Assembly (NCBI RefSeq): GCF_055900595.2
Contig: NZ_CM148325.1
DNA length: 64,000 nucleotides
Reading direction: 5' to 3' (one strand)
Below the pieces are notes generated by a model that made no database searches, was not told the origin of the DNA, and saw only the letters and a list, made by a program, of their open reading frames with translations. Each line of letters starts with the position of its first letter. Within the stretch, counting starts at the first letter, position 1. Of this stretch, positions 12,663-41,495 are shown one piece after another. Made by a program: the position numbers and the translations under genes.

Positions 12663-12676
12663 TGAGCGAGATAGCG

Positions 12677-13837
12677 ATGCACGTTACAGCCAAGCCCTCC
12701 AGTTTTCAATGTAATCTCAAATGTGATTACTGTTTTTACCTTGAAAAAGAGTCGCAGTTTACTCATGAAAAATGGATGGATGACAGCACTCTGAAAGAGT
12801 TCATCAAACAATATATCGCAGCGTCTGGCAATCAGGTCTATTTTACCTGGCAAGGCGGTGAACCCACTCTGGCTGGCCTGGATTTTTTCCGTAAAGTTAT
12901 TCACTATCAACAACGCTATGCAGGCCAAAAACGTATTTTTAATGCATTACAAACGAATGGCATTTTATTGAATAATGAATGGTGTGCCTTTCTCAAAGAA
13001 CATGAGTTTCTGGTTGGTATCTCGATCGATGGACCCCAGGAGCTACATGACTATTACAGACGCAGTAATTCAGGTAACGGTACTTTTGCAAAAGTGATAG
13101 CAGCCATCGAGCGTCTGAAATCATATCAAGTAGAGTTTAATACGTTAACCGTCATTAATAACGTTAATGTCCATTACCCTCTTGAGGTTTATCATTTTTT
13201 AAAATCTATCGGCAGTAAACATATGCAATTTATCGAATTGCTCGAAACCGGGACGCCGAATATTGATTTCAGTGGTCATAGTGAGAACACATTCCGTATC
13301 ATTGATTTTTCTGTGCCTCCTACGGCTTATGGCAAGTTTATGTCAACCATTTTTATGCAATGGGTTAAAAACGATGTGGGTGAAATTTTCATCCGTCAGT
13401 TTGAAAGCTTTGTCAGCCGTTTTTTGGGGAATGGGCATACCAGCTGTATTTTCCAGGAGTCCTGCAAGGATAATCTGGTTGTTGAAAGTAATGGAGACAT
13501 TTACGAATGCGACCATTTTGTCTATCCACAGTACAAAATTGGAAACATTAATAAATCTGAACTCAAAACGATGAATAGTGTTCAACTGACAGCGCAAAAA
13601 AAACGGATTTCAGCGAAATGTCAGCAATGTGCATATAAACCTATCTGCAATGGTGGTTGCCCTAAACATCGTATTACTAAAGTAAACAATGAAACTGTTT
13701 CCTATTTTTGCGAAGGTTATAAAATCCTTTTTTCAACCATGGTGCCTTATATGAACGCCATGGTGGAGTTAGCTAAGAACAGAGTTCCACTTTACCACAT
13801 TATGGATGTTGCAAAACAAATGGAGAATAATAAATAA
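12677..13837 (+). CDS. ydeM: Radical-SAM anaerobic sulfatase-maturating enzyme
   Basis: ORF 12662-13837; start at ATG 12677 ([19 protein letters not shown]…). CxxxCxxC radical-SAM motif near the N-terminus plus C-terminal Cys clusters; adjacent to the sulfatase. Confidence 0.9.
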
Positions 13838-15847: not shown

Positions 15848-18220
15848 ATGAAGCGAGTTCTTATTCCTGGCGTCATTTTATGTGGCGCTGATGTGGCGCA
15901 GGCCGTCGATGACAAAAACATGTACATGCATGTTTTTGAAGAGATGACGGTCTATGCTCCTGTCCCTGTACCCGTAAACGGCAACACGCATTACACCAGT
16001 GAAAGCATCGAGCGTTTACCGACCGGGAATGGCAATATCAGCGATCTGCTGAGAACCAACCCTGCGGTGCGCATGGATTCAACGCAAAGTACCTCGTTGA
16101 ACCAGGGAGATATTCGCCCGGAGAAAATCTCTATTCACGGTGCGTCGCCCTACCAGAATGCCTATTTGATTGACGGTATTAGTGCAACTAATAACCTGAA
16201 CCCAGCGAATGAGTCCGATGCCAGTAGTGCAACCAATATTAGCGGGATGTCACAGGGCTATTATCTTGATGTCAGCTTACTCGACAATGTGACGCTTTAT
16301 GACAGTTTTGTGCCGGTTGAATTCGGTCGCTTCAATGGCGGGGTAATTGATGCAAAGATCAAACGCTTCAATGCTGATGATAGCAGCGTGAAACTGGGTT
16401 ATCGCACTACGCGTTCAAACTGGTTAACATCGCATATCGATGAGAATAACAAGAGCGCATTTAACCAAGGTTCTTCAGGAAGTACTTATTACTCTCCAGA
16501 TTTTAAAAAGAACTTTTATACTTTGGCGTTTAATCAGGAACTCGCTGATAACTTCGGCGTTACCGCCGGTTTATCGCGCCGCCAGTCTGATATCATCCGC
16601 GCGGATTATGTTTCGAATGACGGCATTGTCGCCGGCAGGGCACAGTATAAAAACGTTATCGATACTGCATTGAGCAAATTTACCTGGTTTGCCAGCGACC
16701 GCTTTACCCACGATTTAACCTTAAAATATACCGGCTCCAGCCGTGATTATAATACCAGCACCTTCCCGGAGTCTGATCGCGAAATGGGTAATAAATCCTA
16801 TGGTCTGGCATGGGATATGGATACCCAGCTCGCATGGGCCAAACTGCGTACCACCGTTGGTTGGGATCATATTAGTGATTATACCCGTCACGATCATGAC
16901 ATCTGGTACACCGAACTTTCATGTACATATGGCGATATTTCAGGGCGTTGCACCCGTGGCGGATTAGGACACATTTCCCAGGCTGTAGATAATTACACCT
17001 TCAAAACACGCCTTGACTGGCAAAAATTCGCCGTGGGTAATGTTTCGCATCAACCCTACTTCGGCGCGGAATACATCTATTCCGATGCATGGACTGAACG
17101 CCATAACCAGTCTGAATCCTATGTGATTAATGCTGCCGGAAAGAAAACTAACCATACCATTTACCATAAAGGTAAAGGCAGCCTGGGAATAGACAATTAC
17201 ACGCTGTATATGGCGGATCGCATTAGCTGGCGTAATGTGTCGTTAATGCCCGGCGTGCGGTATGACTATGATAACTATCTGTCAAACCACAATATCTCCC
17301 CGCGCTTTATGACGGAATGGGATATTTTTGCTGATCAAACCTCAATGATTACCGCAGGTTATAACCGTTACTATGGCGGGAATATTCTTGATATGGGATT
17401 ACGTGATATCCGCAATAGCTGGACGGAATCGGTATCAGGCAATAAAACCCTGACGCGTTATCAGGATTTGAAAACGCCTTATAACGATGAACTGGCAATG
17501 GGATTGCAGCAAAAAATCGGTAAGAACGTTATTGCGCGCGCAAACTATGTTTACCGTGAAGCGCATGATCAAATCAGCAAAAGCAGTCGTACCGACAGCG
17601 CGACTAAAACCACCATTACTGAATATAACAACGACGGTAAAACCAAAACGCATTCGTTCAACCTCAGTTTTGAACTGGCCGAACCCCTGCATATCAGCCA
17701 GGTAGATATTAACCCACAAATTGTCTTTAGCTATATCAAGAGCAAGGGCAACTTGTCGTTAAACAATGGTTATGAGGAGAGCAATACCGGTGATAACCGG
17801 GTGGTTTATAACGGTAATCTGGTCTCTTACGATAGCGTTCCAGTGGCGGATTTTAATAATCCACTAAAGATCTCCTTAAACATGGATTTCACGCATCAAC
17901 CGAGCGGGTTGGTGTGGGCGAATACGCTGACCTGGCAAGAAGCGCGTAAAGCTCGCATTATCCTGGGTAAGACGAATGCGCAATACATCAGCGAATATTC
18001 AGATTACAAGCAGTATGTTGACGAAAAACTGGATAGCAGCCTGACCTGGGACACCCGCTTGTCCTGGACGCCACAATTTCTGAAACAACAAAACCTGACG
18101 ATCAGTGCCGATATTCTCAATGTACTGGATAGCAAAACCGCTGTTGATACAACGAATACCGGCGTGGCGACCTACGCCAGTGGCCGTACTTTCTGGCTTG
18201 ATGTCAGCATGAAATTTTAA
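15848..18220 (+). CDS. yddB: TonB-dependent outer-membrane receptor
   Basis: 790 aa ORF with signal peptide and a C-terminal aromatic residue (…WLDVSMKF) typical of TonB-dependent receptors. Confidence 0.9.
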   Translation: MKRVLIPGVILCGADVAQAVDDKNMYMHVFEEMTVYAPVPVPVNGNTHYTSESIERLPTGNGNISDLLRTNPAVRMDSTQSTSLNQGDIRPEKISIHGASPYQNAYLIDGISATNNLNPANESDASSATNISGMSQGYYLDVSLLDNVTLYDSFVPVEFGRFNGGVIDAKIKRFNADDSSVKLGYRTTRSNWLTSHIDENNKSAFNQGSSGSTYYSPDFKKNFYTLAFNQELADNFGVTAGLSRRQSDIIRADYVSNDGIVAGRAQYKNVIDTALSKFTWFASDRFTHDLTLKYTGSSRDYNTSTFPESDREMGNKSYGLAWDMDTQLAWAKLRTTVGWDHISDYTRHDHDIWYTELSCTYGDISGRCTRGGLGHISQAVDNYTFKTRLDWQKFAVGNVSHQPYFGAEYIYSDAWTERHNQSESYVINAAGKKTNHTIYHKGKGSLGIDNYTLYMADRISWRNVSLMPGVRYDYDNYLSNHNISPRFMTEWDIFADQTSMITAGYNRYYGGNILDMGLRDIRNSWTESVSGNKTLTRYQDLKTPYNDELAMGLQQKIGKNVIARANYVYREAHDQISKSSRTDSATKTTITEYNNDGKTKTHSFNLSFELAEPLHISQVDINPQIVFSYIKSKGNLSLNNGYEESNTGDNRVVYNGNLVSYDSVPVADFNNPLKISLNMDFTHQPSGLVWANTLTWQEARKARIILGKTNAQYISEYSDYKQYVDEKLDSSLTWDTRLSWTPQFLKQQNLTISADILNVLDSKTAVDTTNTGVATYASGRTFWLDVSMKF

Positions 18221-18264
18221 TAGTTCGGATTTTACTTAACCGGGTAAATTCGCCCGGTTTTCGC

Positions 18265-21060
18265 ATGGAGATAATTATGAGAAACCTCTGTTTCTTACTG
18301 ACGTTAGTGGCAACTCTGTTGCTCCCCGGGCGACTGATTGCCGCCGCCTTACCGCAGGATGAAAAGTTAATTACCGGGCAACTGGACAATGGCTTGCGAT
18401 ATCTGATTTATCCGCATGCTCAACCAAAGGATCAGGTAAATTTATGGCTGCAAATTCATACCGGTTCATTGCAGGAAGAAGACAATGAGCGCGGCGTGGC
18501 TCATTTTGTAGAACATATGATGTTTAACGGCACAAAAACATGGCCGGGTAATAAAGTCATCGAAACATTTGAGTCAATGGGCCTGCGTTTTGGTCGCGAT
18601 GTTAATGCCTATACCAGCTATGACGAAACAGTGTATCAGGTGAGTTTGCCGACTACGCAGAAACAAAATCTGCAACAAGTGATGGCAATCTTCAGTGAAT
18701 GGAGTAATGCCGCAACCTTTGAAAAACTCGAAGTAGACGCTGAACGCGGCGTAATTACTGAGGAATGGCGTGCCCATCAGGATGCGAAATGGCGCACCTC
18801 TCAGGCGCGCCGCCCTTTCCTGCTGGCAAATACCCGTAATTTAGACCGTGAACCTATCGGCCTGATGGATACCGTCGCCACGGTCACACCGGCACAATTG
18901 CGCCAATTTTATCAACGCTGGTATCAACCAAATAATATGACCTTTATTGTGGTCGGCGATATCGACAGTAAAGAAGCGCTGGCGCTGATAAAGGATAATT
19001 TAAGTAAGCTTCCGGCTAACAAAGCAGCTGAAAATCGCGTCTGGCCGACAAAAGCCGAAAACCACCTGCGCTTTAATATCATCAATGATAAAGAAAACCG
19101 GGTGAACGGCATCGCACTCTATTATCGCCTGCCAATGGTACAAGTGAACGATGAGCAAAGCTTTATCGAACAAGCTGAATGGAGCATGTTGGTTCAGCTG
19201 TTCAACCAACGTCTGCAGGAACGTATACAGTCGGGCGAGTTGAAGACTATTTCTGGTGGCACTGCGCGCAGCGTTAAAATTGCACCCGATTATCAGTCGC
19301 TGTTTTTCCGTGTAAATGCACGTGACAATAATATGCAGGATGCTGCGAATGCATTAATGGCAGAGTTGGCAACCCTCGATCAACATGGTTTTTCTGCTGA
19401 AGAACTCGACGATGTTAAAACTACCCGCCTAACCTGGCTGAAAAATGCGGTTGATCAGCAAGCTGAACGCGATTTACGTATGCTGACCAGTCGCCTGGCG
19501 TCCAGCTCGTTAAATAATACGCCGTTCTTGTCGCCGGAAGAGACATACCAACTTTCGAAACGTCTGTGGCCGCAAATTACCGTGCAAAGTCTGGCGGAAA
19601 AATGGCAGCAGCTAAGAAAGAACCAGGACGCATTTTGGGAGCAAATGGTAAACAATGAAGTTGCCGCCAAAAAAGCATTGTCTCCTGCGGCTATCCTGGC
19701 GCTGGAAAAAGAGTACGCCAACAAAAAGCTGGCGGCTTACATCTTCCCAGGCAGAAATTTATCGTTAACAGTAGACGCTGACCCACAGGCGGAAATTAGC
19801 AGTAAAGAAACACTGGCTGAGAATCTGACATCATTAACACTTTCTAATGGTGCCAGGGTTATTCTGGCAAAATCAGCGGGTGAAGAGCAAAAGCTACAAA
19901 TTATTGCCGTATCTAATAAAGGTGATTTAAGTTTCCCTGCGGAGCAAAAATCACTTATCGCGCTGGCAAATAAAGCGGTGAGTGGCAGCGGCGTTGGTGA
20001 TCTCTCCTCTTCCAGCCTGAAACGCTGGAGTGCGGAAAACTCGGTAACCATGAGCAGCAAAGTCAGTGGGCTGAATACGTTGCTCTCCGTGAGCGCGCGG
20101 GCTAATAATCCTGAACCTGGTTTCCAGTTGATTAACCAGCGAATCACTCACAGCACGATTAATGACAATATTTGGGCATCGCTACAAAATGCTCAAATTC
20201 AGGCGTTGAAAACGCTCGACCAGCGTCCAGCAGAGAAATTCGCCCAGCAGATGTATGAGAAGCGCTATGCTGATGACCGTACGAAATTACTGCAAGAAAA
20301 ACAGATTGCACAATTTACCGCCGCAGACGCGCTGGCTGCCGATCGCCAGTTATTTTCATCTCCAGCGGATATCACGTTTGTCGTTGTCAGTAATGTCGCA
20401 GAAGACAAACTTCTGCCGTTAATTACGCATTACTTAGGATCAATCAAACACTCTGATTCGCCATTAGCCGCAGGTAAACCATTAACTCGCGCGACGGACA
20501 ACGCATCGATTACTGTAAAAGAACAAAATGAACCTGTGGCACAGGTTTCACAGTGGAAGCGTTATGATTCCCGGACACCGGTTAACCTGGCGACGCGTAT
20601 GGCGCTCGATGCTTTTAACGTCGCACTGGCAAAAGATCTACGCATTAATATTCGTGAACAGGCATCTGGGGCATACAGCGTTTCTTCTCGCCTCTCGGTT
20701 GATCCTCAGGCCAAAGACATCAGTCATTTGCTGGCTTTTACTTGTCAACCGGAACGACATGATGAACTGTTAACGTTAGCGAATGAAGTGATGGTTAAGC
20801 GTCTGGCTAAAGGGATCAGTGAGCAAGAACTGAACGAATACCAGCAAAACGTTCAGCGCAGCCTCGATATCCAACAGCGTAGCGTTCAACAATTAGCGAA
20901 CACCATTGTAAATAGTCTTATTCAATATGACGATCCTGCAGCATGGACTGAGCAGGAGCAATTATTGAAACAAATGACGGTAGAGAATGTTAACACTGCC
21001 GTTAAACAATATCTTTCTCATCCGGTGAATACCTATACCGGAGTATTATTGCCAAAATAA
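18265..21060 (+). CDS. pqqL: Periplasmic M16-family zinc protease
   Basis: 931 aa ORF with signal peptide and HxxEH inverted zinc-binding motif (HFVEHMMFNGT). Confidence 0.9.
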   Translation: MEIIMRNLCFLLTLVATLLLPGRLIAAALPQDEKLITGQLDNGLRYLIYPHAQPKDQVNLWLQIHTGSLQEEDNERGVAHFVEHMMFNGTKTWPGNKVIETFESMGLRFGRDVNAYTSYDETVYQVSLPTTQKQNLQQVMAIFSEWSNAATFEKLEVDAERGVITEEWRAHQDAKWRTSQARRPFLLANTRNLDREPIGLMDTVATVTPAQLRQFYQRWYQPNNMTFIVVGDIDSKEALALIKDNLSKLPANKAAENRVWPTKAENHLRFNIINDKENRVNGIALYYRLPMVQVNDEQSFIEQAEWSMLVQLFNQRLQERIQSGELKTISGGTARSVKIAPDYQSLFFRVNARDNNMQDAANALMAELATLDQHGFSAEELDDVKTTRLTWLKNAVDQQAERDLRMLTSRLASSSLNNTPFLSPEETYQLSKRLWPQITVQSLAEKWQQLRKNQDAFWEQMVNNEVAAKKALSPAAILALEKEYANKKLAAYIFPGRNLSLTVDADPQAEISSKETLAENLTSLTLSNGARVILAKSAGEEQKLQIIAVSNKGDLSFPAEQKSLIALANKAVSGSGVGDLSSSSLKRWSAENSVTMSSKVSGLNTLLSVSARANNPEPGFQLINQRITHSTINDNIWASLQNAQIQALKTLDQRPAEKFAQQMYEKRYADDRTKLLQEKQIAQFTAADALAADRQLFSSPADITFVVVSNVAEDKLLPLITHYLGSIKHSDSPLAAGKPLTRATDNASITVKEQNEPVAQVSQWKRYDSRTPVNLATRMALDAFNVALAKDLRINIREQASGAYSVSSRLSVDPQAKDISHLLAFTCQPERHDELLTLANEVMVKRLAKGISEQELNEYQQNVQRSLDIQQRSVQQLANTIVNSLIQYDDPAAWTEQEQLLKQMTVENVNTAVKQYLSHPVNTYTGVLLPK

Positions 21061-21063
21061 TAA

Positions 21064-21100
21064 CAGCCCCGTCAACACCTCGTTGGCGGGGATTTTAGCA
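21064..21100 (+). terminator. Terminator after pqqL
   Basis: CCCCGTCAA-cacctcg-TTGGCGGGG hairpin (one G-U pair) followed by ATTTTAGC. Confidence 0.5.
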
Positions 21101-21321
21101 ATATTCGCCATTTTTATGTAATAATTTTATAAATGCGTTCAAAATAATAGCCGAGTGCTAATAATGATATTTTAATGCCTGATTTTTACGCGATAATTCA
21201 GGAGACATAGAAAGCGCATAAAAATAACAACATAAAACACCTTGCCACCACCCAAGAATTCAATAATATATTGTTTTTAATGAAAAAACATTATTCTCGT
21301 AATATTTCATGATAAATAACA

Positions 21322-21341
21322 TTAGGATTTTGTTATTTAAA
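21322..21341 (+). promoter_or_regulatory. GAD box (GadE-type binding site) of the gadB promoter
   Basis: TTAGGATTTTGTTATTTAAA matches the 20-bp GAD box I recall upstream of gadA and gadB; about 80 bp before the gadB ATG. Confidence 0.7.
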
Positions 21342-21420
21342 CCCGAGTCCTTTGCACTTGCTTACTTTATCGATAAATCCTACTTTTTTAATGCGATCCA
21401 ATCATTTTAAGGAGTTTAAA

Positions 21421-22821
21421 ATGGATAAGAAGCAAGTAACGGATTTAAGGTCGGAATTACTCGATTCACGTTTTGGTGCGAAGTCTATTTCCACTATTGC
21501 AGAATCAAAACGTTTTCCGCTGCACGAAATGCGTGATGATGTCGCATTCCAGATTATCAATGACGAATTATATCTTGATGGCAACGCTCGTCAGAACCTG
21601 GCCACTTTCTGCCAGACCTGGGACGACGAAAATGTCCATAAGTTGATGGATTTATCCATTAACAAAAACTGGATCGACAAAGAAGAATATCCGCAATCTG
21701 CAGCAATCGATCTGCGTTGCGTAAACATGGTTGCCGATCTGTGGCATGCGCCTGCACCGAAAAATGGTCAGGCCGTTGGCACCAACACCATTGGTTCTTC
21801 CGAGGCCTGTATGCTCGGCGGGATGGCGATGAAATGGCGTTGGCGCAAGCGTATGGAAGCTGCAGGTAAGCCGACTAACAAACCTAATCTGGTGTGCGGC
21901 CCGGTACAAATCTGCTGGCATAAATTCGCCCGTTACTGGGATGTGGAACTGCGTGAAATCCCTATGCGCCCCGGTCAGTTGTTTATGGACCCGAAACGCA
22001 TGATTGAAGCCTGCGACGAAAACACTATCGGCGTGGTGCCGACTTTCGGCGTGACCTACACCGGTAACTATGAGTTCCCGCAACCGCTGCACGATGCGCT
22101 GGATAAATTCCAGGCCGACACCGGTATCGACATCGACATGCACATCGACGCCGCCAGCGGTGGCTTCCTGGCACCGTTCGTCGCCCCGGATATCGTCTGG
22201 GACTTCCGCCTGCCGCGTGTGAAATCGATCAGTGCTTCAGGCCATAAATTCGGTCTGGCTCCGCTGGGCTGCGGCTGGGTTATCTGGCGTGATGAAGAAG
22301 CGCTGCCGCAGGAACTGGTGTTCAACGTTGACTACCTCGGCGGTCAGATTGGGACTTTCGCCATCAACTTCTCCCGCCCGGCGGGTCAGGTGATTGCACA
22401 ATACTATGAATTCCTGCGCCTCGGTCGTGAAGGCTATACCAAAGTACAGAACGCTTCCTACCAGGTTGCCGCTTATCTGGCGGATGAAATCGCCAAACTG
22501 GGGCCGTATGAGTTCATCTGTACGGGTCGCCCGGACGAAGGCATCCCGGCGGTTTGCTTCAAACTGAAAGATGGTGAAGATCCGGGATACACCCTGTACG
22601 ACCTCTCTGAACGTCTGCGTCTGCGCGGCTGGCAGGTTCCGGCCTTCACTCTCGGCGGTGAAGCCACCGACATCGTGGTGATGCGCATTATGTGTCGTCG
22701 CGGCTTCGAAATGGACTTTGCTGAACTGTTGCTGGAAGACTACAAAGCCTCCCTGAAATATCTCAGCGACCACCCGAAACTGCAGGGTATTGCCCAGCAG
22801 AACAGCTTTAAACATACCTGA
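21421..22821 (+). CDS. gadB: Glutamate decarboxylase beta (PLP-dependent)
   Basis: ORF 21352-22821; start at ATG 21421 gives [22 protein letters not shown]…, recognised as GadB; contains [15 protein letters not shown] with the PLP lysine. Confidence 0.95.
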
Positions 22822-22841
22822 TAACGTTTAACGGTAACGGT

Positions 22842-22867
22842 GTCCCGAAACGAACCCGTTTCGGGAC
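22842..22867 (+). other. Intergenic hairpin between gadB and gadC
   Basis: Perfect stem GTCCCGAAACG / CGTTTCGGGAC with AACC loop and a weak U-tract; likely a partial terminator or processing site inside the gadBC operon. Confidence 0.45.
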
Positions 22868-22976
22868 AATTTCCAAAGTCTGTTCACTGGCATTAGCAAC
22901 GGAAAATATTGTTCTGAATACGCTTCAGAACAAAACAGGTGCGGTTCCGACAGGAATACCGTTTTAGGGGGATAAT

Positions 22977-24512
22977 ATGGCTACATCAGTACAGACAGGT
23001 AAAGCTAAGCAGCTCACATTACTCGGATTCTTTGCCATAACGGCATCGATGGTAATGGCTGTTTATGAATACCCTACTTTCGCAACATCGGGCTTTTCAT
23101 TAGTCTTCTTCCTGCTATTAGGCGGGATTTTATGGTTTATTCCCGTGGGACTTTGTGCTGCGGAAATGGCTACCGTCGACGGCTGGGAAGAAGGTGGCGT
23201 CTTCGCCTGGGTATCAAATACTCTGGGGCCGAGATGGGGGTTTGCAGCGATCTCATTTGGCTATCTGCAAATCGCCATCGGTTTTATTCCAATGCTCTAT
23301 TTCGTGTTAGGGGCACTCTCCTACATTTTGAAATGGCCAGCGTTGAATGAAGACCCCATTACCAAAACTATTGCAGCACTCATCATTCTTTGGGCGCTGG
23401 CATTAACACAGTTTGGTGGCACGAAATACACGGCGCGAATTGCTAAAGTTGGCTTCTTCGCCGGTATCCTGTTACCTGCATTTATTTTGATCGCATTAGC
23501 GGCTATTTATCTGCACTCCGGTGCTCCCGTTGCTATCGAAATGGATGCGAAAACCTTCTTCCCTGATTTCTCTAAAGTCGGCACCCTGGTTGTGTTTGTT
23601 GCCTTCATTTTGAGTTATATGGGGGTAGAAGCTTCCGCAACCCACGTCAATGAAATGCGCAATCCCGGTCGCGATTATCCGCTGGCGATGTTACTGCTGA
23701 TGGTGGCGGCAATCTGCTTAAGCTCTGTTGGCGGTTTGTCTATTGCGATGGTTATTCCGGGTAATGAAATCAACCTCTCCGCAGGGGTAATGCAAACCTT
23801 TACCGTTCTTATGTCCCATGTGGCACCGGAAATTGAGTGGACGGTTCGCGTGATCTCCGCACTGCTGTTGCTGGGTGTTCTGGCGGAAATCGCTTCCTGG
23901 ATTGTTGGCCCTTCTCGCGGGATGTATGTCACCGCGCAGAAAAACCTGCTGCCAGCGGCGTTCGCTAAAATGAACAAAAATGGCGTACCGGTAACGCTGG
24001 TTATTTCGCAGTTGGTGATTACTACTATCGCGTTGATCATCCTCACCAATACTGGTGGCGGTAACAATATGTCCTTCCTGATCGCCCTGGCGCTGACGGT
24101 GGTGATTTATCTGTGTGCTTATTTCATGCTGTTTATTGGCTACATTGTGTTGGTTCTTAAACATCCTGACTTAAAACGCACATTTAATATCCCTGGTGGT
24201 AAAGGGGTGAAACTGGTCGTGGCAATTGTCGGTCTGCTGACTTCAATTATGGCGTTTATTGTTTCCTTCCTGCCGCCGGATAACATCCAGGGTGACTCTA
24301 CCGATATGTATGTTGAATTACTGGTCGTTAGTTTCCTGGTGGTACTTGCCCTGCCCTTTATTCTCTATGCTGTTCATGATCGTAAAGGCAAAGCGAATAC
24401 CGGCGTCACTCTGGAGCCAATCAACAGTAAGAACGCACCAAAAGGTCACTTCTTCCTGCACCCGCGTGCACGTTCACCACACTATATTGTGATGAATGAC
24501 AAGAAACACTAA
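22977..24512 (+). CDS. gadC: Glutamate/GABA antiporter
   Basis: 511 aa polytopic membrane ORF starting [33 protein letters not shown]…, recognised as GadC. Confidence 0.95.
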
Positions 24513-24537
24513 CCATGTCTGAATGGTTATAAGACAA

Positions 24538-24566
24538 GGGAGCGATAATTCATCGCTCCCTTTTTC
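24538..24566 (+). terminator. Rho-independent terminator after gadC
   Basis: GGGAGCGA-taattca-TCGCTCCC followed by TTTTTCG. Confidence 0.7.
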
Positions 24567-24642
24567 GTGCTCGCTGTCGTATTGACTTAACCGGGATAAG
24601 TACGAGAATGAGCGCACATCTGTTTACCGGAAACCAGCATAT

Positions 24643-25962
24643 ATGGATATCTGCTCCCGAAACGAGAAATTAGCAATTAGAAGACCAGCGGTACTGGTTG
24701 CACTGGCACTGTTACTGTGTAGTTGCAAAAGCACGCCCCCAGAGTCAATGGTGACACCACCAACAGGTTCGAAGCCACCAGCTACGACGCAACAATCGTC
24801 ACAACCGATGCGTGGCATCTGGCTGGCCACAGTGTCTCGCCTCGACTGGCCACCGGTTTCCTCGGTTAACATTAGTAACCCCACCAGCCGGATCCGCGTA
24901 CAACAACAGGCGATGATCGACAAGCTCGATCATCTGCAACGTCTCGGTATAAACACGGTCTTTTTCCAGGTCAAGCCGGACGGTACCGCACTATGGCCAT
25001 CGAAAATTTTGCCGTGGTCCGATCTTATGACCGGTAAGATTGGCGAAAACCCGGGTTACGATCCGTTGCAATTTATGCTCGACGAAGCCCACAAGCGTGG
25101 GATGAAAGTACACGCCTGGTTTAACCCTTACCGCGTATCGGTTAATACAAAGCCTGGTACTATCAGGGAACTGAATAGCACCCTGTCTCAACAACCGGCC
25201 AGCGTCTATGTGCAACACCGCGACTGGATTAGAACGTCGGGTGATCGGTTTGTCCTCGACCCAGGCATCCCTGAGGTTCAGGACTGGATCACATCAATAG
25301 TCGCGGAAGTGGTTTCCCGCTATCCGGTAGATGGCGTGCAGTTTGACGACTATTTTTATACTGAGTCACCAGCTTCACGGCTAAATGATAACGAAACGTA
25401 CCGCAAATACGGAGGCGCATTTGCGTCAAAAGCAGACTGGCGGCGCAACAATACTCAGCAGTTAATTGCGAAGGTATCGCACACCATTAAAAGCATTAAG
25501 CCGGAAGTCGAATTTGGCGTTAGCCCGGCAGGCGTGTGGCGTAACCGATCACACGATCCGCTCGGTTCTGATACCCGAGGCGCGGCAGCCTATGACGAAT
25601 CCTACGCTGACACGCGCCGATGGGTGGAACAAGGATTGCTGGATTACATTGCCCCCCAAATTTACTGGCCATTCTCGCGGAGTGCCGCGCGTTATGACGT
25701 GTTGGCAAAATGGTGGGCGGATGTCGTTAAACCGACCAGGACCCGCCTGTATATCGGTATCGCCTTCTATAAAGTGGGTGAACCTTCAAAGATAGAGCCA
25801 GACTGGATGATTAACGGCGGCGTACCGGAACTGAAAAAGCAACTCGATCTTAACGATGCCGTGCCAGAAATTAGCGGCACAATCTTGTTCCGTGAGGACT
25901 ATCTGAACAAACCTCAGACTCAACAAGCGGTCAGCTATTTGCAAAGTCGTTGGGGCAGTTAA
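24643..25962 (+). CDS. yddW: Lipoprotein glycoside hydrolase YddW (DigH)
   Basis: 439 aa ORF with lipoprotein signal peptide (…ALALLLCSCKSTPP…) and a TIM-barrel hydrolase-like body. Confidence 0.85.
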   Translation: MDICSRNEKLAIRRPAVLVALALLLCSCKSTPPESMVTPPTGSKPPATTQQSSQPMRGIWLATVSRLDWPPVSSVNISNPTSRIRVQQQAMIDKLDHLQRLGINTVFFQVKPDGTALWPSKILPWSDLMTGKIGENPGYDPLQFMLDEAHKRGMKVHAWFNPYRVSVNTKPGTIRELNSTLSQQPASVYVQHRDWIRTSGDRFVLDPGIPEVQDWITSIVAEVVSRYPVDGVQFDDYFYTESPASRLNDNETYRKYGGAFASKADWRRNNTQQLIAKVSHTIKSIKPEVEFGVSPAGVWRNRSHDPLGSDTRGAAAYDESYADTRRWVEQGLLDYIAPQIYWPFSRSAARYDVLAKWWADVVKPTRTRLYIGIAFYKVGEPSKIEPDWMINGGVPELKKQLDLNDAVPEISGTILFREDYLNKPQTQQAVSYLQSRWGS

Positions 25963-25975
25963 ACTTGTAACATGG

Positions 25976-26003
25976 CCGGTGCTTTACTCACCGGCTTGTT
26001 ATC
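25976..26003 (+). terminator. Terminator after yddW
   Basis: GCCGGTG-ctttact-CACCGGC followed by TTGTTATCC. Confidence 0.55.
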
Positions 26004-26325
26004 CTCTTGAAATATCCCACTAATAATCATGCTTATTTAAGCCAAATTAACCACGCAATTAACCACTCTTAGTTTAATAGCCATAAAACCCCTAATAAAA
26101 ATGTATGAATATGAAAACCCTACGGTATTCGCTGTTTCCGAAAAATAATTACGATGGGCTATACTCTTCTGAAGAACAGTAGCGTAGATTGAAACTGTCC
26201 TAACTCTCTTATTTCTTTTCAGTATATCTTCATATTTCAGGAGAATATGTGCAGTTAGTCGATCTCGCACGTTGCGTTTCGTTTTTGATTCCGTCTGCTT
26301 TCTCAGCCTTATAAGGGTGTGAATT

Positions 26326-27708
26326 ATGGAGATGTATTTTAAAAGAATGAAAGATGAGTGGACCGGGCTTGTCGAACAAGCAGATCCGCTCATTCGTGCT
26401 AAAGCCGCGGAAATTGCCGTTGCGCATGCCCATTACCTGAGCATTGAGTTTTACCGAATTGTCCGTATCGACCCGCATGCCGAAGAATTCTTGAGTAATG
26501 AACAAGTTGAGCGGCAGCTGAAAAGTGCGATGGAACGCTGGATTATTAATGTGCTTTCTGCCCAGGTTGACGATGTTGAAAGGCTAATACAAATCCAGCA
26601 TACCGTCGCAGAAGTGCATGCCCGCATCGGCATTCCAGTAGAAATTGTCGAGATGGGGTTTCGGGTGCTGAAAAAAATCCTCTATCCGGTGATTTTCTCT
26701 TCGGATTATTCTGCCGCAGAAAAACTTCAGGTCTACCATTTCTCGATTAACAGTATTGATATCGCGATGGAAGTCATGACCCGCGCGTTTACCTTTAGTG
26801 ACAGTAGTGCCTCAAAAGAAGATGAAAACTATCGTATCTTCTCGTTACTGGAAAACGCCGAAGAAGAAAAAGAACGGCAAATAGCCTCAATCCTTTCATG
26901 GGAAATTGACATTATCTATAAAGTTCTGCTGGATTCTGATTTAGGCAGTAGTTTGCCTTTAAGCCAGGCTGATTTTGGCCTGTGGTTTAACCATAAAGGT
27001 CGACATTATTTTAGCGGCATTGCCGAAGTGGGTCATATCTCCCGCCTGATTCAGGATTTCGACGGTATTTTTAATCAAACCATACGTAATACAAAAAATT
27101 TGAGCAACAAAACTCTGCGGGTGAGATTTTTATTACAGATAAGAAATACCGTATCGCAAATTATTACCTTGCTGCGTGAATTATTTGAAGAAGTATCTCG
27201 CCACGAAGTGGGTATGGATGTACTGACAAAATTACTTAACCGCCGCTTCCTGCCGACCATCTTTAAACGCGAAATTGCCCATGCCAACCGGACCGGCCCC
27301 CCCCTGTCAGTGCTGATTATTGACGTTGATAAATTCAAAGAGATCAACGATACGTGGGGCCATAACACTGGCGATGAAATTCTGCGTAAAGTTTCTCAGG
27401 CCTTTTATGACAACGTCCGCAGTAGTGATTATGTTTTCCGCTACGGGGGCGATGAATTTATCATTGTTTTGACTGAAGCTTCGGAAAACGAAACGTTACG
27501 TACCGCAGAACGTATTCGCAGTCGGGTGGAGAAAACCAAACTGAAAGCCGCAAACGGCGAAGATATTGCCCTCTCACTTTCCATCGGTGCCGCCATGTTT
27601 AATGGTCATCCTGACTATGAGCGCCTCATTCAAATAGCCGATGAAGCTCTGTATATCGCCAAAAGACGAGGTAGAAACCGTGTTGAACTCTGGAAAGCCA
27701 GTCTTTAG
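26326..27708 (+). CDS. dosC: Globin-coupled diguanylate cyclase
   Basis: 460 aa ORF with N-terminal sensor-globin-like domain and C-terminal GGDEF domain (…YVFRYGGDEFIIVL…). Confidence 0.9.
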   Translation: MEMYFKRMKDEWTGLVEQADPLIRAKAAEIAVAHAHYLSIEFYRIVRIDPHAEEFLSNEQVERQLKSAMERWIINVLSAQVDDVERLIQIQHTVAEVHARIGIPVEIVEMGFRVLKKILYPVIFSSDYSAAEKLQVYHFSINSIDIAMEVMTRAFTFSDSSASKEDENYRIFSLLENAEEEKERQIASILSWEIDIIYKVLLDSDLGSSLPLSQADFGLWFNHKGRHYFSGIAEVGHISRLIQDFDGIFNQTIRNTKNLSNKTLRVRFLLQIRNTVSQIITLLRELFEEVSRHEVGMDVLTKLLNRRFLPTIFKREIAHANRTGPPLSVLIIDVDKFKEINDTWGHNTGDEILRKVSQAFYDNVRSSDYVFRYGGDEFIIVLTEASENETLRTAERIRSRVEKTKLKAANGEDIALSLSIGAAMFNGHPDYERLIQIADEALYIAKRRGRNRVELWKASL

Positions 27709-41387: not shown

Positions 41388-41395
41388 ATAAATAT

Positions 41396-41419
41396 CCTCC
41401 GGCATAGCCGGAGGTTTTT
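41396..41419 (+). terminator. Hairpin with T-run after yddM; terminator or IS200 end structure
   Basis: CCTCCGG-catagc-CCGGAGG followed by TTTTT. Confidence 0.5.
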
Positions 41420-41495
41420 CAAATGCGCCTGTAAGGCTCTGTTACCAGCCGCGCCCTAACAGGCGCATACGATCTGACATTTGCATTCAACTTCG

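Follow-up and report, generated by a model that had tools for sequence, protein, structure and literature searches.

The gadBC acid-resistance operon of an Escherichia coli lineage and a predicted RNA hairpin between its two genes

Positions 21322-24566 of the window, the stretch of 64,000 nt that was analysed, were found to carry an ordinary and well-studied E. coli gadBC acid-resistance operon in which the known activator site is intact. The operon and its GAD box have been described before, and the less-studied detail is a conserved RNA hairpin that lies between the two genes at a point where some K-12 transcripts end. In the reading preferred here, to which a probability of roughly 0.7 is assigned, gadBC is activated by GadE-RcsB, part of the transcripts stop at this leaky hairpin and the rest reach position 24566. 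As the operon and the GAD box are textbook acid resistance, and were rightly labelled as known biology in the initial annotation, finding them intact in a further E. coli lineage brings little that is new. What modest value the region has lies in the spacer, where a hairpin of conserved structure and a mapped RNA end occur together; the hairpin could explain how much more soluble enzyme than membrane antiporter is obtained from one promoter.

Genes and chromosomal setting

The gadB gene (21421..22821) encodes a PLP-dependent glutamate decarboxylase of 466 aa, and gadC (22977..24512), located directly downstream on the same strand with its start 155 nt past gadB, encodes a glutamate/GABA antiporter of 511 aa; these and the other features of the operon described below are on the plus strand. 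The assignment as gadBC, already made in the initial annotation, was confirmed by profile matches (TIGR01788, 692 bits with a cut-off of 380, and PF00282, 371 bits, for GadB; TIGR00910, 1025 bits over the full length with a cut-off of 673.5, and PF13520, 207 bits, for GadC) and by near-identity to the K-12 proteins, from which GadB differs by one amino acid and GadC by four. The ribosome-binding site of gadB is AGGAG at 21410-21414, and a mechanically called open reading frame from TTG 21352 is an upstream extension of gadB, the start of which is 21421.

The gene order pqqL-gadB-gadC-digH is normal for E. coli and is common to K-12 and to the annotation of a 99.9%-identical genome. The 3.6-kb region, annotated as gadB and gadC, is present at a coverage of at least 80% in 5383 of the 5426 complete E. 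coli genomes, and the identity of gadBC is at least 99% in only 8 of the 5426. The window shares 96% identity with K-12 over 10 kb and belongs to a less common E. coli lineage. The operon of K-12 MG1655 (b1493-b1492) has the same genes in the same order with the same neighbours, pqqL upstream and digH downstream, and shows full or almost full identity in the GAD box, the core promoter, the 155-nt spacer and the terminator; ahead of the GAD box the window departs from it by some 20 substitutions, three of them in the putative GadX/GadW site described below, and by a single 1-bp indel. Glutamate-dependent survival at pH 2.5 or below is expected of a gadBC operon of the E. coli type and would be predicted here. 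Elsewhere in the window, an IS200-like element is found at 41394-42097.

GAD box, promoter and upstream region

The GAD box noted upstream of gadB in the initial annotation is indeed intact, being present as one exact match to the 20-bp sequence TTAGGATTTTGTTATTTAAA at 21322-21341 (+), and no other site with up to three mismatches occurs in the 64 kb, where 0.03 are expected by chance. This is the published sequence of the GAD box (PMC4918353), a GadE/RcsB site (PMC2887963, PMC4918353). The same 20 bp are found in the gadB and gadA promoters of K-12; a divergent Escherichia lineage likewise has the exact box and E. albertii retains 19/20 of it, in both cases between flanks that have diverged. 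In the gadA and gadB promoters the box is placed 16 bp upstream of the -35 element with its centre 63 bp before the transcription start (PMC2887963), and this spacing is matched in the window, with 16 bp between the box and the -35 TTGCTT and the box centre at 21331.5. Binding of GadE-RcsB to the GAD box, and the need for it in activation, have been shown for gadA (PMC2887963), and the box described here is predicted to be a GadE-RcsB-bound activator site of the same kind.

The core gadB promoter (21358..21386) comprises the -35 TTGCTT at 21358-21363, a 17-bp spacer and the -10 TACTTT at 21381-21386. The comparison with the annotated gadB promoter, a check proposed in the initial annotation, showed that over the whole interval between GAD box and ATG the window departs from K-12 at one base only, 21343. 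By analogy with K-12, the transcription start would lie 27 nt ahead of the gadB ATG, near 21394. This weak promoter would be activated by a GadE-RcsB heterodimer on the GAD box, the centre of which is some 63 bp ahead of the start, a step known from the literature. GadB would then decarboxylate glutamate, consuming a proton, and GadC would swap external glutamate for GABA.

Further upstream, a putative GadX/GadW motif, ATGCCTGATTTTTACGCGAT at 21173..21192, was compared by eye on the K-12 alignment, from which it differs at three positions; the consensus for these regulators is AtGtcTGATtTttatattat (PMC4918353). Just past the pqqL stop at 21060, the RNA is predicted to fold into a terminator-like hairpin (21067..21095, CCCCGUCAAC/GUUGGCGGGG followed by AUUUU; -18.6 kcal/mol, z -4.3), which would insulate gadBC from upstream transcription.

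The hairpin downstream of gadB and the RNA 3' ends

Twenty bases past the gadB stop codon begins an intercistronic hairpin, here designated hairpin 1, which together with its tail AUUU occupies 22841..22872. Its arms, 22841-22852 (TGTCCCGAAACG) and 22857-22868 (CGTTTCGGGACA), enclose the loop AACC and form a stem of 12 perfect pairs, 7 of them G-C, with a folding energy of -21.1 kcal/mol (z = -4.0 versus shuffles). The initial annotation recognised the hairpin but described its perfect stem as 11 bp, the outer T-A pair having been omitted.

The spacer between gadB and gadC is 100% identical to that of K-12, and 3' ends could be taken from published K-12 Term-seq data for M63-glucose cultures. 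The 3' end at 1570594(-) corresponds to position 22872 of the window, four bases past hairpin 1, with an average count of 33,817, and that at 1568900(-) corresponds to 24566, at the gadC terminator, with a count of 70,553. Some transcripts thus end after gadB, since a K-12 3' end maps there in an identical spacer, and the two ends give direct support to the earlier suggestion that gadB and gadC may be differentially expressed. Term-seq counts are not stoichiometric and, taken at face value, correspond to only about 1.5-fold more gadB than gadC RNA; of the three growth conditions, a single one has a curated end at the equivalent of 22872. The Rho data set in PMC7815308 lists nothing at hairpin 1, further published 3'-end resources yielded no usable gad record, and an acid-stress ribosome-profiling paper gives fold changes only and no gadB:gadC levels.

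The operon ends in an intrinsic terminator (24536..24566), identified by folding and Term-seq, with the stem AAGGGAGCGAU/AUCGCUCCCUU (arms 24536-24546 and 24552-24562, 9-11 bp), the loop AAUUC and a tail of five T, the U-tract extending to 24565. Its energy is -18.1 kcal/mol (z = -4.5) and its sequence through the U-tract is the same as in K-12, so that the strong terminator reported after gadC in the initial annotation is present with its stem-loop, its U-tract and a mapped K-12 3' end. A consensus promoter and terminator scan proved uninformative: its hits were not clearly above the shuffled expectation, and it overlooked hairpin 1, this terminator and the true gadB promoter. The terminator is taken to have escaped because the leading AA claimed two of the five T as stem partners, and the scored tail would then have been short of T.

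Hairpin 1 combines a stable, G+C-rich stem-loop with a mapped 3' end in its tail, but that tail (AUUUCCAA) has 3 U in 8, below the 5/8 U needed for listing in the scan. Because it is without a proper U-tract (AAUUUCC), hairpin 1 is no canonical terminator. Nor is it a repeat of the REP/BIME type, since its sequence is unique and the 201-nt spacer region has a median of one location per genome (maximum 2). A search of 20900-24800 with every Rfam family, in which E values as high as 1 were accepted, gave no match, leaving the spacer and leader without a described RNA family. In the searchable literature no study of the gadB-gadC spacer, of a gadB-only transcript or of an sRNA interaction there was found, nor any paper testing hairpin 1.

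The pattern of substitutions in the stem points to the structure of hairpin 1, rather than its sequence, as what is conserved in Escherichia. Among seven Escherichia lineages, 4 of the 12 stem pairs displayed compensatory double changes, and 92.8% of cells were paired, versus 36-50% once the partner columns of the whole structure were slid; the hairpin region diverges faster among the lineages than the rest of the spacer. Four E. coli strains were sampled for changes in the spacer, and all those seen lie in the loop, the closing pair or the outermost pair, with the stem core unchanged; the outer T-A pair is lost in strain E2348/69.

Hairpins were also sought in 57 gadB-gadC spacers of at least 60 nt from other bacteria, with dinucleotide shuffles as the reference. 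The best hairpin had a median z of -3.6, being below -2 in 47 of the 57, and started within 45 nt of the decarboxylase stop in 50. These hairpins are unrelated in sequence; true U-tracts follow 7 of them, and the other 50 have no U-rich tail. Nine further gadBC operons have spacers shorter than 60 nt, most of them without a strong hairpin.

Origin and possible roles of hairpin 1

Genes of one operon can be expressed unequally through a leaky internal terminator or a protective intercistronic hairpin, as in rpsU-dnaG-rpoD and at the REP hairpin of malE-malF. Hairpin 1 resembles this type in that a stable stem-loop stands just past the gene whose product is needed more, an RNA 3' end is located at the stem foot and transcription still reaches the downstream gene. 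It differs in being unique and not a repeat, and in a U-tract too poor for a canonical terminator; the likeness is one of structure and 3' end. In the preferred mechanism, RNA past the gadB stop would fold into the 12-bp hairpin, and this hairpin and its short U-tract would act as a deliberately leaky intrinsic terminator, a fraction of the transcripts ending four bases on (AAUUU) and the remainder running through gadC to the canonical terminator at 24566. The stem may also protect the gadB message from 3' exonucleases, and the abundant soluble enzyme would then be better supplied with mRNA than the membrane antiporter.

A 3' end beside a stable hairpin can equally come from exonuclease trimming, following cleavage or Rho-dependent termination downstream, and this counts against the leaky terminator, as do the poor U-tract, the curation of the 3' end in a single growth condition, the small face-value excess of gadB RNA and the short gadBC spacers that mostly have no strong hairpin. 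The corresponding alternative, which is considered rather unlikely though the most serious of those weighed, is that hairpin 1 serves as a barrier to 3'-to-5' exonucleases and not as a terminator: full-length gadBC RNA would be cut or Rho-terminated downstream, and PNPase and RNase II would trim it back as far as the stem, so that a stable message of gadB alone remained. The 3' end only 4 nt from the stem, the poor U-tract (3 U) and the 50 of 57 hairpins elsewhere that also have no U-rich tail are in its favour, and protective intercistronic hairpins, for example that of malE-malF, are an established mechanism. Indeed, both readings stand because the U-tract is poor. However, no cleavage site or 5' end downstream of hairpin 1 is documented in the sources searched, and full terminator-type U-tracts occur at the same place in seven other species, suggesting that termination was at least one of the ancestral roles. 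More gadB than gadC RNA would be obtained by either mechanism.

The gadA-gadX pair of the acid fitness island offers a parallel, as the same GAD box (20/20) stands upstream of a paralogous decarboxylase gene and a strong hairpin (15 bp, 13-nt loop, -28.3 kcal/mol) begins 17 nt past the gadA stop, before the co-transcribed downstream gene. Homology with gadB reaches only 5-6 nt beyond the stop codon, and the two hairpins have unrelated sequences. A curated 3' end at the gadA hairpin was sought in the Term-seq tables and none is present; as this hairpin is stronger than hairpin 1, the result weighs against the leaky terminator and the exonuclease barrier alike.

The closest relatives of E. coli GadB, with 74-85% identity, are the decarboxylases of the gadB-gadC-glsA operons of Brucella microti, Yersinia, Salmonella enterica subsp. 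salamae and Edwardsiella. These operons likewise serve acid resistance, but they have no GAD box and contain a TIGR03813-type antiporter, about 32% identical to E. coli GadC, followed by glutaminase A. The Escherichia gadBC operon appears chimeric, with a decarboxylase from the family of operons comprising gadB, a TIGR03813-type antiporter and glutaminase, and an antiporter from the TIGR00910-type gadBC family; such a difference in ancestry implies that the gadB-gadC junction was created by recombination. The combination in Escherichia of an enzyme and an antiporter with separate origins is relevant to the assembly of this very effective acid-resistance system. A broader proposal, advanced tentatively and at somewhat less than even odds, is that a strong hairpin 10-40 nt past the decarboxylase stop is a convergently kept device that fixes the ratio of enzyme to antiporter RNA in gad operons generally. 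It would have outlasted the recombination that built the Escherichia operon and would act in E. coli as a tuned leaky terminator, the weak U-tract itself being selected.

It is improbable that hairpin 1 has no regulatory role, being a relic, such as a former terminator from a time when the decarboxylase gene was transcribed by itself, or simply a neutral palindrome, with the Term-seq signal as a harmless by-product. The different ancestry of the Escherichia gadB and gadC, the small RNA-level difference implied and the hairpin that gadA too has past its stop would suit such an origin, but compensatory changes preserve the stem across Escherichia lineages despite the faster divergence of the region, its core is unchanged in the sampled E. 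coli strains, and most of the other gadBC operons have a hairpin of unrelated sequence at the corresponding place. An action of the inverted repeat as DNA, as the site of a dimeric regulator or the mark of an internal gadC promoter region, is highly improbable even though hairpin 1 is a perfect palindrome and a weak promoter-like CCGACA-18-GATAAT (9/12) precedes gadC, since the arms change while their pairing is kept, a signature of RNA structure and not of a protein site, the promoter-like match ends at the base preceding the ATG and is no better than the shuffled expectation (7 matches found by the scan versus 5.2), and no Rfam family matches.

The remainder of the spacer contains two elements absent from the initial annotation. 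The first, hairpin 2 (22909..22933), is predicted to have a 10-bp AU-rich stem and the loop UACGC (-10.9 kcal/mol, z -4.2); across Escherichia one of its pairs is compensatory, but E. albertii has two mismatches and a further lineage a deletion, which hints at best at a conserved structure. A minus-strand terminator called by the scan at hairpin 2 was rejected, as no convergent gene ends there, and a small open reading frame in the spacer (GTG 22840, 18 codons), without a ribosome-binding site, was dismissed on sequence alone. The second element, in the minimum-energy fold of the spacer (22941..22971), is a small predicted helix at 22941-22962, followed by the gadC ribosome-binding site GGGGG at 22967-22971; this helix is almost invariant among Escherichia and hence uninformative for covariation.

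The gadBC operon and its promoter

The operon consists of gadB (ATG at 21421 to a stop ending at 22821, + strand, 466 aa) and gadC (22977-24512, + strand, 511 aa), the products of which matched TIGR01788 (glutamate decarboxylase equivalog, 692 bits) and TIGR00910 (1025 bits, full length), respectively, with Pfam assignments consistent with both. GadB differs from its counterpart in E. coli K-12 MG1655 (K-12) by one residue and GadC by four, and the gene neighbourhood is also that of K-12, with pqqL upstream and digH, dosC and dosP downstream. A search of 5426 complete E. coli genomes found the 3.6-kb gadBC stretch, annotated as gadB and gadC, in 5383 (coverage ≥80%). Over gadBC (21100-24700), identity to the window reached ≥99% in only eight of the 5426, and K-12 and the window are 96% identical across 10 kb (17467-27466). 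The window belongs to an uncommon E. coli lineage.

The GAD box TTAGGATTTTGTTATTTAAA is intact upstream of gadB, as the initial annotation had read it, with a single zero-mismatch match at 21322-21341; no further site was found in the 64 kb at ≤3 mismatches (chance expectation 0.03). The GadE-RcsB heterodimer is known to bind the 20-bp GAD box, the centre of which lies 63 bp before the transcription start of both gadA and gadBC, and 16 bp separate the box from the -35 element (PMC2887963); the characterised GadE site is the same 20-mer (PMC4918353). Here, the -35 element TTGCTT (21358-21363, + strand) follows the box by 16 bp and is separated by a 17-bp spacer from the -10 element TACTTT (21381-21386, + strand), which would place the transcription start near 21394 (27 nt upstream of the ATG). 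The comparison with the K-12 gadB promoter proposed earlier showed that the sequence from GAD box to ATG is the same save for one base, at 21343, while the segment upstream of the box (21061-21320) differs by about 20 substitutions and a single 1-bp indel. Three of these upstream changes fall in a GadX/GadW-like site near 21173-21192.

In the K-12 promoter of gadA, the decarboxylase paralogue located upstream of gadX, the GAD box is identical at 20 of 20 positions and the flanks are different. A divergent Escherichia lineage has the box without mismatch and E. albertii has it at 19/20 positions, with diverged flanks in both. Such retention among diverged flanks is a phylogenetic footprint. Upstream of gadB in other genera, the best match had at least 6 mismatches.

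Directly after the pqqL stop, a terminator-like hairpin (21067-21095; 10 bp including one G-U pair, then AUUUU; -18.6 kcal/mol) probably insulates gadBC from upstream transcription; it is absent from the output of the simple terminator scan. That scan called neither the gadC terminator nor the hairpin between gadB and gadC, and the promoter scan did not call the real gadB promoter, so scan output was given no weight.

The intercistronic hairpin and RNA 3' ends

The initial annotation described a perfect 11-bp hairpin between gadB and gadC. Its pairing is indeed perfect, though the stem comprises 12 pairs, with arms at 22841-22852 and 22857-22868 enclosing a four-base loop (-21.1 kcal/mol, z = -4.0). 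The strong terminator reported after gadC was likewise recovered (arms 24536-24546 and 24552-24562, T to 24565, -18.1 kcal/mol, z = -4.5). The spacer holds two further structures absent from that annotation, namely a 10-bp AU-rich helix at 22909-22933 (-10.9 kcal/mol) and, immediately preceding the gadC ribosome-binding site, a small third helix (22941-22962). A REP-type repeat origin of the first hairpin was rejected, and it matched no Rfam family.

Over all of its 155 nt, the spacer matches that of K-12 at 100% identity, despite the uncommon lineage of the window. The curated K-12 Term-seq table (PMC7815308, M63-glucose sheet) lists minus-strand 3' ends at 1570594 and 1568900, with average counts of 33,817 and 70,553, and the flanks printed for them are the sequences of the intercistronic hairpin and the gadC terminator. 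Transferred by local colinearity of the two genomes, the first corresponds to window position 22872, where the third U of AAUUU stands four bases beyond the stem, and the second to 24566, the C after five U. RNAs ending after gadB, which it had been suggested to look for, are therefore present in K-12, from an identical spacer. Both ends were found in one of three growth conditions and are labelled 'orphan', with distances to the stop codon of 51 and 54 nt; the label presumably reflects a position >50 nt from a stop codon.

K-12 has the same operon, GAD box, promoter and terminator, all of them known biology. The hairpin, too, occurs unaltered in K-12, and a public table already contains its 3' end, though unnamed; no paper testing the hairpin was found in the searchable literature.

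Conservation and mechanism of the hairpin

The hairpin region varies more than the remaining spacer across seven Escherichia lineages, yet keeps its pairing. Four of the 12 pairs show changes on both sides, such as U-A to C-G and A-U to G-C in E. albertii, and 92.8% of cells are paired, versus 36-50% for the whole structure once the 3' partners are offset by 1-3 columns. With seven sequences, this covariation lends moderate support to a conserved structure. In four E. coli strains taken from the lower-identity part of the ranking, spacer substitutions are confined to the loop (AACC to AAGC), the closing pair and the outermost U-A pair of the hairpin. The helix at 22909-22933 is only weakly conserved in Escherichia: E. 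albertii has two mismatches in it, and another lineage carries a deletion.

Outside Escherichia, a GadC scan of one genome per species gave 80 loci, about 65 of them with gadB immediately before gadC. For the 57 spacers of ≥60 nt, the 40-nt hairpin of greatest stability had a median z of -3.6 relative to dinucleotide shuffles; z was below -2 in 47, and in 50 the hairpin began no more than 45 nt past the gadB stop. The hairpin sequences are unrelated between genera; seven, including those of Yersinia rohdei, a Serratia and Comamonas kerstersii, have a real U-tract, and the others lack one, like that of E. coli. Most of nine further gadBC operons with spacers <60 nt have no strong hairpin. A hairpin after gadB is thus common and not universal, in loci that are phylogenetically non-independent. 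Many spacers of Providencia, Proteus and Buttiauxella likewise contain a second hairpin ahead of the ribosome-binding site.

The gadB-gadC hairpin is stable and structurally conserved, an RNA 3' end maps to its base, and transcription still reaches gadC. It would raise gadB RNA over gadC RNA, in keeping with the differential expression that the initial annotation thought possible; taken at face value, the Term-seq counts correspond to about 1.5-fold more gadB RNA, no more. The main rival is that it acts purely as an exonuclease barrier, a reading favoured by its poor U-tract and by the many U-less hairpins of other species. We favour a leaky intrinsic terminator, because the 3' end lies within a short U run, full terminators occupy the same place in related operons, and a terminator needs a weak U-tract for the downstream gene still to be expressed.

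K-12 gadA has a stronger hairpin, of 15 bp and unrelated to that of gadB, 17 nt after its stop codon (-28.3 kcal/mol, z -7.1; 1620-1680, - strand, in the gadA-gadX spacer of the K-12 locus L085). Homology between gadA and gadB stops 5-6 nt after the stop codon, and the K-12 Term-seq tables hold no curated 3' end for the gadA hairpin.

Ancestry of the operon and other features of the window

Across about 60 other proteobacterial gadBC operons, GadC shares 70-81% identity with the window GadC, but the GadB proteins encoded beside it are only 56-60% identical to the window GadB, although 74-93% among themselves. The nearest GadB relatives outside Escherichia (79-85%) are from Salmonella enterica subsp. 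salamae, Y. rohdei and Edwardsiella and belong to another kind of operon, in which a TIGR03813-type antiporter gene comes after gadB and glutaminase A third; identity of that antiporter to E. coli GadC is only about 32%. Y. rohdei has both operon types. These mismatched relationships suggest that Escherichia gadBC arose by recombination between two operon families, joined in or near the spacer. Similarly mismatched identities, 57% and 33%, are given for Ochrobactrum versus B. microti in a review on Brucella, which did not conclude recombination.

Elsewhere, a 704-bp IS200-like insertion (41394-42097), between higA/yddM and fdnI, encodes an IS200-type Y1 transposase (152 aa, minus strand, PF01797, 126 bits) and is absent from the nearest sequenced relative, NZ_CP098223.1 (99.9% identical). 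In that relative, a frameshift is annotated in ydeM (anaerobic sulfatase maturase; 18164-19325 of its compared locus, L083), a segment that by colinearity corresponds roughly to 12675-13836 in the window.
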